32,000 bases of DNA from contig JBHLKY010000018.1 of NCBI GenBank assembly GCA_048886185.1, forward strand, positions 67,992-99,991, written 5' to 3'. Below, one piece after another: positions 15,603 to 22,909 of this stretch (the first letter of the stretch is position 1; every line of letters starts with the position of its first letter). The translations under genes and the position numbers were made by a program. Below the pieces are notes generated by a model, which had not been told where the DNA came from, ran no database searches, and saw only the letters and a program-made list of their open reading frames with translations. Origin of the DNA: Candidatus Hermodarchaeota archaeon (lineage in GTDB: Archaea; Asgardarchaeota; Heimdallarchaeia; Hodarchaeales; Hodarchaeaceae).

Positions 15603-16430
15603 TTATCTTTCCATCCGTGTTCTAAGAAGTATCTCTTTAATTCTAGTATAAAATCCATTAAATCGATCAATACTTCTAGAGTCAATCATTAATATTAATC
15701 CAAAAGTGATTAATATATTAGTAACCAAGAAAAATAAAAATTCTTCAATAGGTAACATTCCTGCTAGGAGAATCCCTGTTGATGTATTTATATTAATAGT
15801 CCAGACCCCCTCTCCAATGGCAATCGCATCTACAACAGCTAGATAAATTGTAGAAACAGATATGACTGAGATTAGGTCTCGTCTTGACAACCAGAGAATG
15901 TCAGCTCCATAGATCAACTGAATTATTATTGGAGGTATCCCCCACAAAAGTATTAAATTTAGATAAGTTAAAGATTCTATTTTGTTGATAAATATAATAA
16001 AGGAAACCAACCAAATAATAAAAAAACTCAATGACGAAATCAACCGTAAATTTTGTTTCAGATCATAATGATTGTCCTTATTTGTTTTCTGAAGCTGGAT
16101 CCATCCAAATATTAATCCTATTAAGAGAGTTTGGAATACAAAAAAGGCATATTCTTCAATTGGCACAAAACCAATTAAAATACCTATAATTTTCGAATTC
16201 TCATAATACCAAATAGCATTTTCAACGAGAAAATTATCCCATGGAGTAGTATAAGTAATGGCTACAACTATTAAAATCGTTAAAGCAATTAAGATTCTTT
16301 TTATCATCGTTTTCTGATTTTCTTCCCCTTCCTGATATTTTCTACGGTAAAGAATAGTGACAACCGCTAAAGGTAACCCAATAAAGATAAGGAGGAAAGT
16401 AAAATATGATAACACTATTTTCTCTTCCAT
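15603..16430 (-). CDS. crtY: Lycopene cyclase, heterodimeric CrtYc/d type fused as two domains
   Basis: TTPWDNFLV...IW.Y, GFVPIEEYAFF and a second copy VDAIAIGEGVW...LPIEEFLFF. Multi-TM. TAATG overlap with crtI. Confidence 0.88.
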   Translation of the reverse strand: MEEKIVLSYFTFLLIFIGLPLAVVTILYRRKYQEGEENQKTMIKRILIALTILIVVAITYTTPWDNFLVENAIWYYENSKIIGILIGFVPIEEYAFFVFQTLLIGLIFGWIQLQKTNKDNHYDLKQNLRLISSLSFFIIWLVSFIIFINKIESLTYLNLILLWGIPPIIIQLIYGADILWLSRRDLISVISVSTIYLAVVDAIAIGEGVWTININTSTGILLAGMLPIEEFLFFLVTNILITFGLILMIDSRSIDRFNGFYTRIKEILLRTRMER

Positions 16431-18013
16431 TAATTGAAATCGCTATTGCTAGAGTTTTTCTTCGAAGAAATATTTTTATATCTGATAATTAAATCTGTGG
16501 TTACTTTTGCACTGGAAACAACACCAGGTAATCCTGCTCCTGGATGAGTTCCAGCACCCACTAAATAGAGACCATCAATGTCTTCAGATTTGTTATGTGG
16601 ACGGAACCACGCTGATTGAGTAAAAATTGGTTCAACAGAAAAGCCAGAACCTTTAAAGCTATTATAATCTCGTTCAAAATCGAGTGGAGTTAAAATTCGC
16701 TCTGTAACTAAGTTCTCTTTTAGTCCAGGGAGATAATTCTCTTCAAGAAAATCAAAAATTCGTTGTTTAAATGGTTCAGCCATTTTTTCCCAATTAATAC
16801 CAGAATCTAGATGAGGGACTGGAATCAGAATGTAAAAAGTTTCATGTCCTTCAGGTGCTAAACTTGGATCAGTTCGAGTGGGGAGATGTAAATAGCTGGA
16901 AAAATCTTCCGCTAAAATCTTTTTCTTGAAAATATCTTCCAATAATCCTTTGTAGCGGGGACCCAAAATAATTGTGTGATGTTTCATCTCTGGATATTGC
17001 TTTTTCGTACCAAAATAAATTACTACTAATCCCATAGAATATTTTGCTTTTTTATAACGTTTATCACTATTTTTCTTACGCCACTTGGCATCAATCATTT
17101 TTGTGTATGTAAAAGCTGGATCAGCATTACTAATTATAATTTTAGATGGATAAAAATCATTTGAAGTAGTGAAAACGCCTACAGCTTGATTTTTTCTGAT
17201 CTCAATCTTTTTTACCTCAGTATTCAATACAATTTTACCCCCAAGCTCCTCAAATAGGTCTGCTAACGCATTTACTAACACAGTTGTACCACCACGAGCA
17301 AACCAAACTCCAAATTCTTTTTCGAGGTATTGAATAAGGCTATAAATTGAAGGAACCGAGAATGGATTCCCACCAATAAGTAAAGGATGAAAACTAAATA
17401 CCATTCTGAGATTTTCATGTCTTATATACTTAGAGACAAAATTATAATTTGATCGATATGATTGCAGCTTGATAAGAGAGGGAGCTACTTTAAGCATAGA
17501 AGTGAACTTGTGAAATGGTTTAAATGATAAGTCTTTGAATCCTTTCTCGTAGATCGGTTTAACTGCTTTAAGCATACGTTTATATCCTTCTACATCTTCA
17601 GGACTTATTTTTTCAATTTGAGGAATGTTTTTATCTGGAGTGGAATAGTCAAAAAAACTTCCATCGTTGAAATGAATCCGGTAAAAGGGCTCCACAGGGA
17701 CTAACTTAACATAATCCTCCAATTTTCGATCAGCTAAGCTAAATAAATCCCTAAAGATGTCAGGTACTGTTATCACAGTTGGTCCTCCGTCAAAAATGAA
17801 ACCTTGATCTTTGAAGACTCTAGCTCGACCACCAACCTGATCTAATTTTTCTAACATGATAACATTATATCTACCCGTGGCTTGGAGTCGAATTCCAGCC
17901 GCCAATCCCCCAATCCCTGACCCAACGATAACTACGGGTTCGAGATTCGTTTCAAATTGTTTATGTTGAAACATCTGAGACTGTTTATCATGGTTATTAC
18001 TCATTTCTCGCAC
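16430..18013 (-). CDS. crtI: Phytoene desaturase (CrtI family)
   Basis: FAD-binding VIVGSGIGGLAAG, EK.DQVGGRA and FDGGPTVIT, with C-terminal LYLVGAGTHPGAGLPGVVSSA. Confidence 0.95.
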   Translation of the reverse strand: MREMSNNHDKQSQMFQHKQFETNLEPVVIVGSGIGGLAAGIRLQATGRYNVIMLEKLDQVGGRARVFKDQGFIFDGGPTVITVPDIFRDLFSLADRKLEDYVKLVPVEPFYRIHFNDGSFFDYSTPDKNIPQIEKISPEDVEGYKRMLKAVKPIYEKGFKDLSFKPFHKFTSMLKVAPSLIKLQSYRSNYNFVSKYIRHENLRMVFSFHPLLIGGNPFSVPSIYSLIQYLEKEFGVWFARGGTTVLVNALADLFEELGGKIVLNTEVKKIEIRKNQAVGVFTTSNDFYPSKIIISNADPAFTYTKMIDAKWRKKNSDKRYKKAKYSMGLVVIYFGTKKQYPEMKHHTIILGPRYKGLLEDIFKKKILAEDFSSYLHLPTRTDPSLAPEGHETFYILIPVPHLDSGINWEKMAEPFKQRIFDFLEENYLPGLKENLVTERILTPLDFERDYNSFKGSGFSVEPIFTQSAWFRPHNKSEDIDGLYLVGAGTHPGAGLPGVVSSAKVTTDLIIRYKNISSKKNSSNSDFN

Positions 18014-18100
18014 GTCTATTCCCTTAACAAATCAATGTGGCATTCATAATAAAGACTTTTTCAACTAAAAACCTATTTTCGAAAGGTATTTAAGTATTTA

Positions 18101-18129
18101 TTCATGAAGTTGATTTGATTCATGAACTG
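18101..18129. promoter_or_regulatory. Candidate operator in the crtI/crtB divergent promoter
   Basis: TTCAT(18101-18105)-N16-ATGAA(18122-18126), which is also two ATTCATGAA copies 18 nt apart. It lies just downstream of the TATA-like TTTAAGTA relative to crtB. Confidence 0.6.
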
Positions 18130-18146
18130 TTAATGGGTAATTTAAA

Positions 18147-19091
18147 ATGTATTCAACTCAAAACACAATCGATTGGGGACTTTATCCAAAAAATATGATA
18201 ACTAAATACAGTTTATTGGATAAAACACTTGAAGAAAGCTATCAAGTCTGTTTAGAGTGGATGGCAGAGCATAGTAAATCATTCTATTTTGCTAGCCGAT
18301 TTTTACCTGAAGATCAACGTAAAAGTGTTGCTGCTCTCTATGCTATTTGTCGATTAAGCGATGATATAGTTGATGAAGCTCCAGAGGGAGTCACCATTGA
18401 GCAGATTAATTATGAACTTGATCAACTGAAAAATACTATTACACAATTGGCCAATGGATATAGTTCTACTAATCCAATTCTTCATGCATTTGGAGATACC
18501 TTGCGTCAACATCAAATTCCAGTTCATTACATGCATGAGCTTATAGAGGGTGTGAGAATGGACCTTATAAAAACCGAGTACTATTCAGAGGTTGAACTCG
18601 ATTTATACATGTATCGGGTTGCAAGTACTGTTGGTCAAATGATGACTCACATCTTTATTAGAAATCCAGCGAAACAAACACTAGCAAGAGCTGCAGATCT
18701 AGGTAAAGCAATGCAATTAACCAATATATTAAGAGATATTAAAGAAGATTTCCTAAAGGGGCGAATATACCTTCCACAAGAAACTCGGAATGACTATCAA
18801 GTTACCGTTGAGGATTTAAGATCTGATAAAGTTAATGAGAACCTCAAATCACTAATTCGTTATGAATCTAGAAGAGCAAAAGCTTTCTATAACATAGCTG
18901 AACTTGGTATTGAGGAATTACCCCCTGCAGGAGCTTATACGGTAAAAGTTGCCTCAAGAGTATATGGGGAGATTCTTAATGAGATAAAGCGACGCAAATA
19001 TCAAGTTTTAAGTCAACGAGCGGTTGTTTCTAAACTAAGAAAAATCATTCTAGCTACTAAAGTACGTTTAGAATATGTACAAAAACTTTAA
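18147..19091 (+). CDS. crtB: Phytoene synthase
   Basis: HSKSFYFASRFLP, LYAICRLSDDIVDE, YRVASTVG and AMQLTNILRDIKED..GRIYLP. Confidence 0.95.
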   Translation: MYSTQNTIDWGLYPKNMITKYSLLDKTLEESYQVCLEWMAEHSKSFYFASRFLPEDQRKSVAALYAICRLSDDIVDEAPEGVTIEQINYELDQLKNTITQLANGYSSTNPILHAFGDTLRQHQIPVHYMHELIEGVRMDLIKTEYYSEVELDLYMYRVASTVGQMMTHIFIRNPAKQTLARAADLGKAMQLTNILRDIKEDFLKGRIYLPQETRNDYQVTVEDLRSDKVNENLKSLIRYESRRAKAFYNIAELGIEELPPAGAYTVKVASRVYGEILNEIKRRKYQVLSQRAVVSKLRKIILATKVRLEYVQKL

Positions 19092-19125
19092 GCAGTTCAT
19101 AAAATAACAATACGTCATGAACAGC
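19092..19125. promoter_or_regulatory. Second copy of the candidate operator, upstream of the B12 regulator
   Basis: GCAGTTCAT-N16-ATGAACAGC (8/9 arm match), with the same TTCAT-N16-ATGAA geometry as the site at 18101-18126. Confidence 0.55.
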
Positions 19126-19157
19126 TTCAAGAAATCCTAGAATGGACGCACCGCCCT

Positions 19158-20099
19158 ATGGAAAATACTCAATTACCAGCAAGAGATCGCATATTTCGAT
19201 ACTTAAGAAAAAATCGCGGAAGAGAAGTGCCTGCTTCTGAGCTCGCATCTCGCCTAGATCTCAAACGTTCAACAATTTCTAACGCCATAAAGGAACTTAA
19301 TCTACTTGGATTAATCGAAATCGAACGACGTCCACTTAAGCGAGGGCGATATACAGTAATATACTTGACTGAAGACCTAATAAAAGAACCGTACATACAT
19401 AAGAATGAGATATTGAAGAGAAAAAAGGAGTCTAAAGAGCGAAGAAATGAGGAAATATCCCCTTTCTTTGAATCAGCTACCATGGCTGATACAATTAAAT
19501 ACCTTAAATCCCCTAATTATAACACTGAGGAGTTTTTTATAAAAATTGATTCAATATTTACTGATAGGATCTCTCTTATCACTGATTTTATAACCCCACT
19601 AATGCATGAGGTCGGTGAACAATGGGCTCGAACAGATCTTTCAACAGCTGAAGAACATGTTATTTCTAATCGAATTATCCAGCTTATCGATGCAAGAATG
19701 CCAACAAATGATAATATAGAAAAAAAAGGCCTCGTAATATTAGTACCTGTAGAAGGGGAAAGACATGTCATAAGTTTATTGGCCTTAGAATATATTCTCC
19801 GAGATTTAAAATATAATACCATTAATCTAGGTCGCGCATTACCCGTTGGATCATTAATTCAATACATCAAAACCCTTCCAATGTTACCTGATTGGATTTT
19901 TATGTCCGTTACCCTTCCCACATATCTTGGAACAATTAGACGAAATTTGGAATATTTATATGATAATTTTAATGATCAAATTCGTTTTGCTGTCGGTGGG
20001 CAGGGAATTTCAGAGAATGAACGCAATTTATTTCCTGAAGCGGATGTTGTGGCCATTAATAAAGAGGATTTAATGAATTTTATTAAAATACTTAGATAA
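19158..20099 (+). CDS. CarH/LitR-type cobalamin-binding transcriptional regulator with an N-terminal winged-helix domain
   Basis: N-terminal HTH (ASELASRLDLKRSTISNAIKEL...GLI). W-x9-E-H motif (19623-19658). E-x-H-x-x-S at 19758-19775 (canonical ExHxxG). LGRALP, MSVT and GGQG of the B12 Rossmann domain. Adjacent to crtB. Confidence 0.88.
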   Translation: MENTQLPARDRIFRYLRKNRGREVPASELASRLDLKRSTISNAIKELNLLGLIEIERRPLKRGRYTVIYLTEDLIKEPYIHKNEILKRKKESKERRNEEISPFFESATMADTIKYLKSPNYNTEEFFIKIDSIFTDRISLITDFITPLMHEVGEQWARTDLSTAEEHVISNRIIQLIDARMPTNDNIEKKGLVILVPVEGERHVISLLALEYILRDLKYNTINLGRALPVGSLIQYIKTLPMLPDWIFMSVTLPTYLGTIRRNLEYLYDNFNDQIRFAVGGQGISENERNLFPEADVVAINKEDLMNFIKILR

Positions 20100-20157: not shown

Positions 20158-20448
20158 TTAAGGAATAAATTTGGTCATCTCAATTAAATGCCTCTTTAAT
20201 CTCTCCAAATCAATAACCATCAGATCCAACATGGCTAATCTGGCTATAATAGCATAAAGATCTGGCTTTCGAGGATCGTCATTTGTTTTGAGTTTAACTT
20301 CCCAGAGATTACGTTTTTCTTTGTATTTTGCAACTAAATCTACTAATTCGTCAATTATTTTAGGAATTTTCTGCTCAGTTGCATAAATACTAACTGACTC
20401 ACTACTTTCTTTTAGTTCTTTACTTTTAGACATCAAATTTCTACTCAT
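20158..20448 (-). CDS. Small hypothetical helical-hairpin protein
   Basis: 96-aa ATG ORF with amphipathic helices and no competing ORF. Confidence 0.6.
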   Translation of the reverse strand: MSRNLMSKSKELKESSESVSIYATEQKIPKIIDELVDLVAKYKEKRNLWEVKLKTNDDPRKPDLYAIIARLAMLDLMVIDLERLKRHLIEMTKFIP

Positions 20449-22051: not shown

Positions 22052-22909
22052 ATGGTAATAAAAATGCTAGACGAGTCTGTGACTGATATAAAAATCGCAA
22101 TTAAAGTTTATTTGGAATACAAGAAAGAGTATATCAAGACATTTCTACTATTCTTGACTGGAATTGTTGTATTAGTGTTTAGTGGCTTTATTATCCTACG
22201 ATTTGTCATATTGGAGAACTATTTTCAATTCGATGAAATCATCAGATTATTTATCATATTGATTATCCTATTAATTCTTTCCTTAATATTTTTCTTACTT
22301 CTATCATATGCAAGGACTACTTTTGGTTTAACATATGATATTATGACATCTGGGGAATTATATACAGAGTTCAGAAGATCTCTCACATATTTTAAGAAAT
22401 TTTGGTTGTATTTCATTCTATTATCATTACCTTATGCTTTAATCATTGGACTGGATCAACTATTTGGTTTATTCTCTTTATTAGAATTAATTCAATCACA
22501 TGACGGGAATCGTAATCTCCTAGTAATAATTAAGATTGTTGTCTATTTATTCGATTTTCTGCTATATATTTCCTTAATTGAAATATTCCCAAGTATTATA
22601 GTAGTTAAAAATCTAAGACAATCTATAACTGAGAATTTTACAATTGCTAGTCAAAATTTTAATCGCCTCTTTTACTCAATAGGAACCTATTATATAGCCT
22701 TTCGAGGACCGATGTTTCTTGTTGATATAACTCGGATTTTAATAGTTGCTAATGAGACAACATTCTTATTTTTCAATATTATTTTTGCCATAGTTGCTTT
22801 TATAAATGCCCTAATTGGCCTTCCCATTCTTAGTTTAATCTCAACACGAATTTATAACACCATTATATTGACAACAGCAACTGATGGTATAGAATCTCAT
22901 GATAAATAA
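22052..22909 (+). CDS. Hypothetical integral membrane protein (about 5-6 TM)
   Basis: 285-aa hydrophobic ORF. No catalytic motif recognised. Confidence 0.8.
   Translation: MVIKMLDESVTDIKIAIKVYLEYKKEYIKTFLLFLTGIVVLVFSGFIILRFVILENYFQFDEIIRLFIILIILLILSLIFFLLLSYARTTFGLTYDIMTSGELYTEFRRSLTYFKKFWLYFILLSLPYALIIGLDQLFGLFSLLELIQSHDGNRNLLVIIKIVVYLFDFLLYISLIEIFPSIIVVKNLRQSITENFTIASQNFNRLFYSIGTYYIAFRGPMFLVDITRILIVANETTFLFFNIIFAIVAFINALIGLPILSLISTRIYNTIILTTATDGIESHDK

Follow-up and report, generated by a model that had tools for sequence, protein, structure and literature searches.

The window analysed here, a 32,000-nucleotide (nt) stretch from Candidatus Hermodarchaeota archaeon (GenBank assembly GCA_048886185.1, contig JBHLKY010000018.1, positions 67,992 to 99,991 of the forward strand), carries a carotenoid cluster in which the divergent crtI and crtB genes are accompanied by a gene for a winged-helix/vitamin B12 regulator. 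Two candidate operators of this regulator, O1 and O2, are located in the two intergenic regions of the cluster. The features of the locus, in window coordinates, were as follows.

15603 to 16430, minus strand: lycopene-cyclase-like gene, 3' of crtI and in the same direction; the match to Pfam Lycopene_cyc is weak (E = 8e-4, under the curated cut-off), and orthologous loci annotate the same gene as Lycopene_cyc.
16430 to 18013, minus strand: crtI, phytoene desaturase, divergent from crtB (Pfam Amino_oxidase / NAD_binding_8).
18080 to 18084, plus strand: purine run cGAAA just 5' of the crtB TATA box, which we take to be a B recognition element (BRE) from the archaeal promoter consensus; c(c/a)gAAA / cAAAA is kept in 12 close species.
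18087 to 18096, plus strand: predicted TATA box of crtB, TATTTAAGTA, with its core at 18089-18096 (TATTTAAATA in orthologues); the region is 84 % conserved.
18101 to 18108, no strand: box A of candidate operator O1, TTCATGAA; 100 % conserved in 12 species.
18119 to 18126, no strand: box B of O1, TTCATGAA, over the predicted crtB start (~18117-18121); 99 % conserved.
18101 to 18126, no strand: O1 entire, TTCATGAA-N10-TTCATGAA, the sole perfect site in the 4.84-Mb genome.
18147 to 19091, plus strand: crtB, phytoene synthase, directly 3' of O1 (Pfam SQS_PSY, E = 1.5e-75).
19096 to 19103, plus strand: box A' of candidate operator O2, TTCATAAA, overlapping the TATA-like run CATAAAATAA; invariant in 13 close-clade sequences.
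19114 to 19121, plus strand: box B' of O2, GTCATGAA; exact in 10 of the 13 close-clade sequences.
19158 to 20099, plus strand: regulator, 313 amino acids (aa), with Pfam HTH_11, MarR_2 and HTH_20 matches and both B12-binding domains.

The original prediction had described the motif TTCAT-N16-ATGAA in both intergenic regions, and both occurrences were present exactly as described. TTCAT at 18101-18105 is followed after 16 nt by ATGAA at 18122-18126 between crtI and crtB, and TTCAT at 19096-19100 is followed, at identical spacing, by ATGAA at 19117-19121 between crtB and the regulator gene. The right flanks also agreed, with TCATGAACTG (18120-18129) at the first site and TCATGAACAG (19115-19124) at the second. 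The impression that no other case had this geometry could be confirmed for the 32-kb window, which contained only these two matches compared to 0.09 expected from shuffles. A look-elsewhere null was also computed, counting any 5+5 inverted repeat shared at equal spacing (0-30) by regions of these lengths; it was reached in 2 of 5000 shuffles and in 41 of 5000 random AT-rich genomic pairs of the same region lengths.

The sequence of the first site reads ATTCATGAA, nine bases, ATTCATGAA, which contains the palindromic octamer TTCATGAA twice, 18 bp apart. TTCAT and ATGAA are thus only the outer halves of the two TTCATGAA boxes, and the real unit is the whole 8-bp palindromic box rather than the 5+5 pattern. 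The inner box halves at this site were as invariant as the outer halves in the orthologue alignments. Each single box is a palindrome, the pair is a tandem repeat as well, and the N16 spacing is not fixed. The further contrast, of a palindrome with the tandem repeats read by CarH, could not be established, since the site is a palindrome and a tandem box repeat at once and both descriptions would fit the sequence data. As a long inverted repeat, the outer halves have half-site centres 21-22 bp apart, which corresponds to two helical turns.

Orthologous loci were taken from genomes and metagenomes, with the metagenome scan contributing two loci only. All relatives of the regulator belonged to Asgard archaea, with the labels Hodarchaeales, Heimdall-, Thor-, Odin- or Hermodarchaeota, and the gene order, with crtI divergent from crtB and crtB followed by the regulator, was constant in every locus examined. 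A close set of 12 species with regulators of 60-74 % identity allowed gap-free alignment of the region upstream of crtB. Within this set, conservation was 100 % in box A and 99 % in box B, compared to 80 % in the 10-nt spacer, 66-71 % in the outer flanks and 84 % in the BRE/TATA stretch. A box pair 18 or 19 bp apart could be found in 25 of the 25 loci having upstream DNA, with a period of 18 bp in the close clade and 19 bp (N17) in distant clades, and box pairs were also present in a second family whose regulators are just 30-35 % identical. Across 54 boxes, the consensus counts at positions 1-8 were T52 T49 C53 A53 T54 G53 A54 A53. Variants were mostly confined to positions 1-2 (TACATGAA, GTCATGAA) with CATGAA intact, and the 3' flank was often C, an indication that the core, CATGAA(C), may have a direction.

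Throughout the 155 kb of orthologous loci, strict pairs were confined to the crtI/crtB promoter. Some genomes have second copies of crtB and crtI, and their promoters showed no strict box pair. Second copies of crtB (and crtI) were located a few kb from the regulator in several relatives (G058:C1:1544966-1545895, G059:C186 and G063:C287; L004, L007 and L032).

Arrays of more than two boxes were observed in some lineages. Three tandem boxes with a 19-bp period were present in one locus (L006:4895-4940), and three boxes of period 19, the first with two mismatches, in another (L003:4914-4940). Up to four boxes, interleaved at 0, 11, 19 and 30 (TTCATGAA, TACATGAA, GTCATGAA and TTCCTGAA), were found in L038 and L042; those in L042 (856-893) stand 100, 89, 81 and 70 nt ahead of crtB, and L038 is arranged likewise. 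These arrays correspond to two 19-bp pairs offset by one helical turn, as if serving four DNA-binding domains. Separately, relatives of ~380-420 aa (P0024, P0025 and P0030; L004, L005, L007, L008, L009 and L026-L030) have a tandem pair of winged helices before the B12 module, and the sensor-proximal one is 64 % identical to the winged-helix domain of the window protein.

Scanning of the whole genome (4.84 Mb, 35 % GC) revealed a single copy of the perfect TTCATGAA-N10-TTCATGAA form, namely O1 at the crtB promoter. At up to two mismatches, 32 two-box matches were obtained, of which four were intergenic, and O1 and O2 were two of these four. N10 two-box pairs at ≤1-2 mismatches showed no enrichment genome-wide, so that conclusions can be drawn only from perfect matches and from the intergenic ones. 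The other two intergenic matches were taken as chance, as each carries two mismatches and has no light-related context. The neighbours of one (C16:43268) are a class-III aminotransferase and a giant protein of NosD/lectin type, and those of the other (C21:31468) are an MMPL gene and an unannotated gene of 468 aa.

A pattern search for perfect two-box sites was extended to 22 genomes of the genus (~88 Mb) and returned 12 sites, 11 of them about 20-90 bp upstream of crtB. The twelfth (in G058) falls within an open reading frame (ORF) and was set aside, as about one chance match is expected over ~88 Mb. No perfect two-box site was present in the seven genus genomes that have neither crtB nor the regulator, and the reversed pattern, used as a control, gave no match in the 22 genomes. 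Among 83 genomes of the class, crtB was present in 17 and the regulator in 16, which amounts to one phyletic pattern, the single difference being a contig end. Taken by comparison, these results strongly favour the proposal that the motif is the operator of the B12 regulator: O1 is unique in the genome, stands at crtB in every regulator-bearing relative, leaves a phylogenetic footprint and is absent where the gene pair is absent. O1 and O2 are very probably binding sites of a regulatory protein, and the adjacent winged-helix/B12 regulator is, with good confidence, the protein that would bind them. The proposal had also included control of crtI, which lies 88 bp from O1 to its start; we infer this control solely from the common intergenic region.

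The position of the boxes relative to the core promoter was also assessed. Of the 25 loci, 21 had a TTTAWATA-like octamer (at most one mismatch) shortly upstream of box A, and in 17 of these it ended precisely 4 bp ahead of the box; in the window, O1 begins 4 bp past the predicted crtB TATA box. The centre of an archaeal TATA box usually precedes the start site by ~26 bp. With this distance, box A would lie at about -18 to -11 and box B on the predicted start at ~18117-18121. O1 would then span roughly -18 to +8 of the predicted crtB promoter, and the predicted crtB leader would be ~28 nt long with a Shine-Dalgarno-like GGGT. The crtB TATA element of the orthologues (TATTTAAATA) is a perfect palindrome and may be shared by the two divergent genes, in which case box A would be on the BRE side of crtI, whose core promoter could not be located.

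The second site, O2, consists of TTCATAAA-N10-GTCATGAA and was found only in the crtB-regulator spacer of the close clade. Conservation was seen upstream of orthologous crtB, and before the regulator gene in this clade alone. Box A' was unchanged in all 13 close-clade sequences; where box B' departed from the exact form, it read GTCATGAC in L031 and was decayed in L036 and L037. The full O2 pattern had four copies in the 22 genus genomes, all in the crtB-regulator spacer and all in the orientation of the gene. In distant clades the regulator starts no more than ~20 bp after crtB or overlaps it, and with so short a spacer, or none, the regulator there would be co-transcribed and controlled from the first site. 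The A in TTCATAAA produces the TATA-like run CATAAAATAA, which suggests an internal promoter for the regulator with a TATA element overlapping box A'. O2 may be regarded as a weaker, clade-specific copy, whose overlap with the TATA-like run would allow separate autoregulation.

The AlphaFold model of the regulator (predicted local distance difference test, pLDDT, 83.6) showed a winged helix (residues 8-70) and, after a disordered linker (87-105), a four-helix bundle (109-180) followed by a Rossmann domain (192-312). No MerR domain was detected by Pfam, and the DNA-binding domain is not of the MerR type. Its nearest solved sequences were CodY (E = 1.6e-4), MarR and ArsR, and its fold matched MarR/ArsR/AbfR2 with template modelling (TM) scores of 0.6-0.7. 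The CodY box also has a TTC..GAA core, which is taken as a lead only. MarR proteins are triangular dimers whose winged helix is set between N- and C-terminal dimerisation helices. These helices were absent from the model, in which the linker and the B12 module follow directly after the winged helix.

Analysis of the sensor part revealed CarH-type motifs, the B12 motif in slightly divergent form. The Wx9EH motif caps the adenosyl group and separates the photoreceptor CarH from the B12-independent CarA, and in combination with the classic B12 motif it defines CarH photoreceptors (PMC8156234, PMC9304148). It occurs in the window protein as W156-x9-E166-H167 and was found in 24 of 24 aligned relatives. 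E201-x-H203, S250-x-T252 and G280-G281 are invariant, and the ExH...SxT...GG pattern was likewise present in 24 of 24 relatives. The best fold matches were light-sensing cobalamin domains, namely photocobilins, CarH (dark, light and DNA-bound), CtMerR and AerR (E ~1e-9), and light-sensing cobalamin domains were matched by sequence too.

Prediction of a homodimer gave a score of 0.70, compared to 0.00 for the best of three controls. Of the proteins solved as one-chain pairs, 20 of 30 reached the mark for a homodimer, as did 1 of 23 solved as single chains, and the runs showed at least 47 % contact agreement with a partner pLDDT of at least 75. The predicted interface is head-to-tail: residues 162-185 of the bundle meet residues 220-242 of the Rossmann domain, and the DNA-binding domains are not part of it. 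Because CarH assemblies have been solved, this pass may reflect memory of CarH or likeness to it rather than independent support.

The sites exist, are unique and conserved, and co-occur with the regulator, and the regulator shows the motifs of CarH photochemistry together with a CarH-like fold. The reading that best accounts for this is that O1 and O2 are operators of the regulator and that the system is the functional counterpart of bacterial CarH in a Hodarchaeales-type Asgard archaeon, to which we assign a probability of roughly 65-70 %. What binds the sites, in which oligomeric form, how it responds to light, where transcription starts and whether the regulation is negative or positive are points that we infer from these data. 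The dark form would be an oligomer with bound adenosylcobalamin, at least a head-to-tail dimer joined via the B12 modules, that places one winged helix on each box. TATA-binding protein (TBP) and transcription factor B (TFB) may still bind, and recruitment of RNA polymerase (RNAP) would be blocked, as with LrpA and MDR1. Upon illumination, the Co-C bond would be broken, the oligomer would dissociate or reshape, the boxes would be freed and crtB would be transcribed, together with the downstream regulator and perhaps the divergent crtI operon.

Several observations weigh against this light-switch reading. The bare TTCAT-N16-ATGAA pattern had 34 matches in the 4.84 Mb, and N16 was no commoner than N8-N25; the rarity of the 5+5 pattern was therefore rejected as a criterion, and the expectation of a rare motif holds only in the two-box form, which is above background and unique as a perfect copy. 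A period of 18-19 bp puts consecutive boxes on different faces of the helix and would need a flexible protein. No genome among the 83 of the class has crtB without the regulator, so that there is no true negative control. The B12 motif, compared to D/ExHx2G/P-x41-SxT/V-x22-27-GG, has Ser after Hx2 and a spacer of 43 instead of 41; the residue in question is Gly or Pro in 9 of the 24 relatives. Trp156 is followed by Ala, where Thermus CarH has the His from which its bis-His photoproduct is formed (PMC9304148). TTTAWATA and related 6-mers, examined to calibrate the TATA position, showed no positional peak upstream of 2310 well-separated gene starts, and aragorn detected only 11 tRNAs in the genome, whose upstream regions had no clear pattern. 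A Shine-Dalgarno G-rich peak at -13 to -8 was present upstream of the same starts; this peak without a TATA peak implies variable leader lengths in a Hodarchaeales-type genome. Finally, the heliorhodopsin and photolyase promoters of the host genome have no box pair, which gives no wider light regulon, and the regulon thus appears local. These two genes are ~5 kb apart (photolyase G000:C2:211939-213321, plus strand; heliorhodopsin C2:217701-218513, minus strand), and a lone TTCATGAA occurs within the ORF preceding the photolyase gene. Genome searches with Bac_rhodopsin and Blh (BCD) gave no match, and neither did their controls, so that this result carries no weight as to absence.

Some of these points would also suit a real operator of the adjacent regulator whose signal is cobalamin availability or redox state and not light, as for B12-binding regulators that are not photoreceptors. 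Corrinoid proteins and domains of methionine synthase are also matched by the sensor with similar E-values, Ser replaces Gly/Pro in the B12 motif, the His next to Trp is absent and the boxes stand at no other light-related gene. A signal of this kind is nevertheless unlikely, given that Wx9EH is intact in all 24 relatives, that the sole target is a carotenoid cluster, which is a classic light-induced regulon, and that photoreceptor domains are the top fold matches.

It is less likely still that the boxes are bound by another transcription factor encoded elsewhere, with the B12 regulator having a different target, even though winged-helix proteins are numerous in these genomes. The box pair adjoins the regulator in every locus and the two have a common phyletic pattern, and one site per genome is what a local regulator would give. 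Moreover, the recognition helix (I40, S41, N42, A43 and K45) and the wing (R57, R58, L60, K61, G63 and Y65) are invariant over the same span as the box.

The near-fixed distance to the TATA box in most lineages could also be expected if the boxes were core-promoter elements of the crt promoters, either initiator or promoter-proximal. This appears very improbable, since the two-box form is at no other promoter in 4.84 Mb, the same boxes occur at O2 in a different context, and in some lineages the boxes abut or overlap TATA-like elements or form arrays of three to four. As for an RNA hairpin or DNA cruciform acting post-initiation, boxes A and B are mutually reverse complementary and could be folded on paper into a stem of 8 bp closing a loop of 10 nt, but this reading is hardly credible because 10 of 27 box pairs carry a variant and the partner is compensated in none, no Rfam match was found on scanning 17800-19400 at E <= 1, box A would be untranscribed if the TATA assignment is right, and pairing at O2 is limited to the outer 5 bp.

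Some further features surround the cluster. Towards crtI, at 18045-18052, the sequence TTCATAAT resembles a box; it is not kept in orthologues and was dropped. The ORFs adjoining the regulator, at 20158-20448 (minus strand, 96 aa) and 22052-22909 (plus strand, 285 aa), had no Pfam match, and the gene content downstream of the regulator was different in each orthologous locus.

To our knowledge, control of transcription by light through vitamin B12 is known only from bacteria, in the form of MerR-type CarH/LitR, and Asgard archaea are the archaeal group closest to eukaryotes. If the light-switch reading is true, these sediment archaea sense light, and light likely switches on their pigment synthesis. 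It would also provide a DNA-binding domain/operator pair that is orthogonal to the optogenetic CarH pair and acts on a TBP/TFB-type promoter. The 26-bp operator and the 313-residue protein make a directly testable protein-DNA pair, for which no cultivation of the organism is needed. We are somewhat inclined to go further and regard O1 and O2 as the first cis-element to be defined for a light-responsive switch of transcription in Asgard archaea. Here a B12-photoreceptor module would have been re-wired to an archaeal winged helix and to tandem 8-bp boxes just past the TATA box, so that light would gate the recruitment of RNAP within a basal machinery resembling that of eukaryotes. The oligomer would have co-evolved with the boxes, which vary in number (2, 3 or 4) and in spacing (period 18 or 19, or interleaved 11+8), and with the winged helices, of which a chain has one or two.

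The closest known system is CarH, or class I LitR, of Thermus thermophilus, Bacillus megaterium and Myxococcus xanthus (PDB 5C8D, 5C8E). It shares the same layout of DNA-binding domain, linker, four-helix bundle with Wx9EH and Rossmann B12 domain, the placement of the regulator gene in a carotenoid cluster and an operator of repeated units over the core promoter, where the position is predicted in the present case and the units are two, or three to four boxes in some lineages. The head-to-tail dimer through the B12 module, here predicted, is a further likeness. CarH/LitR has a MerR DNA-binding domain, whereas a MarR/ArsR/CodY-like winged helix is present here. The CarH operator consists of three or four tandem 11-bp direct repeats nAnnTnnACAn (PMC8156234), in contrast to 8-bp palindromes with an 18-19 bp period. 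CarH blocks binding of sigma-A, whereas the promoter here is an archaeal one with TATA/BRE and TBP/TFB, and the blocked step would be RNAP recruitment. CarH homologues are described as bacterial and the present host is an Asgard archaeon; our literature search found CarH/LitR only from bacteria with MerR domains, and no archaeal winged-helix/B12 regulator or operator.

In terms of operator position, a likeness may exist to LrpA of Pyrococcus and MDR1 of Archaeoglobus, as O1 would begin a few bp past the TATA box and cover the predicted start site. LrpA and MDR1 border the TATA box downstream, so that TBP/TFB bind and RNAP is excluded (PMC2995911). These proteins belong to unrelated families with other signals (amino acids, metals), and the position in our locus is a predicted one. 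CrtR of Corynebacterium glutamicum is alike in its MarR-like winged helix, carotenoid operon, divergent promoter and light-inducible pigment (PMC6739363, PMC5401885); it differs in that it reportedly senses isoprenoid pyrophosphates and has no B12 domain, and in forming a canonical bacterial MarR dimer. CtMerR, photocobilins and the other SignatureFinder cobalamin photoreceptors have light-responsive cobalamin domains on varied outputs including helix-turn-helix (HTH) domains; the portion of that source consulted does not mention archaea, a winged-helix/MarR fusion or a defined operator (PMC11796333). Compared to a CarH-type light switch, the Asgard system would thus retain the same sensor logic and differ in its DNA-binding domain, operator, promoter type and domain of life.

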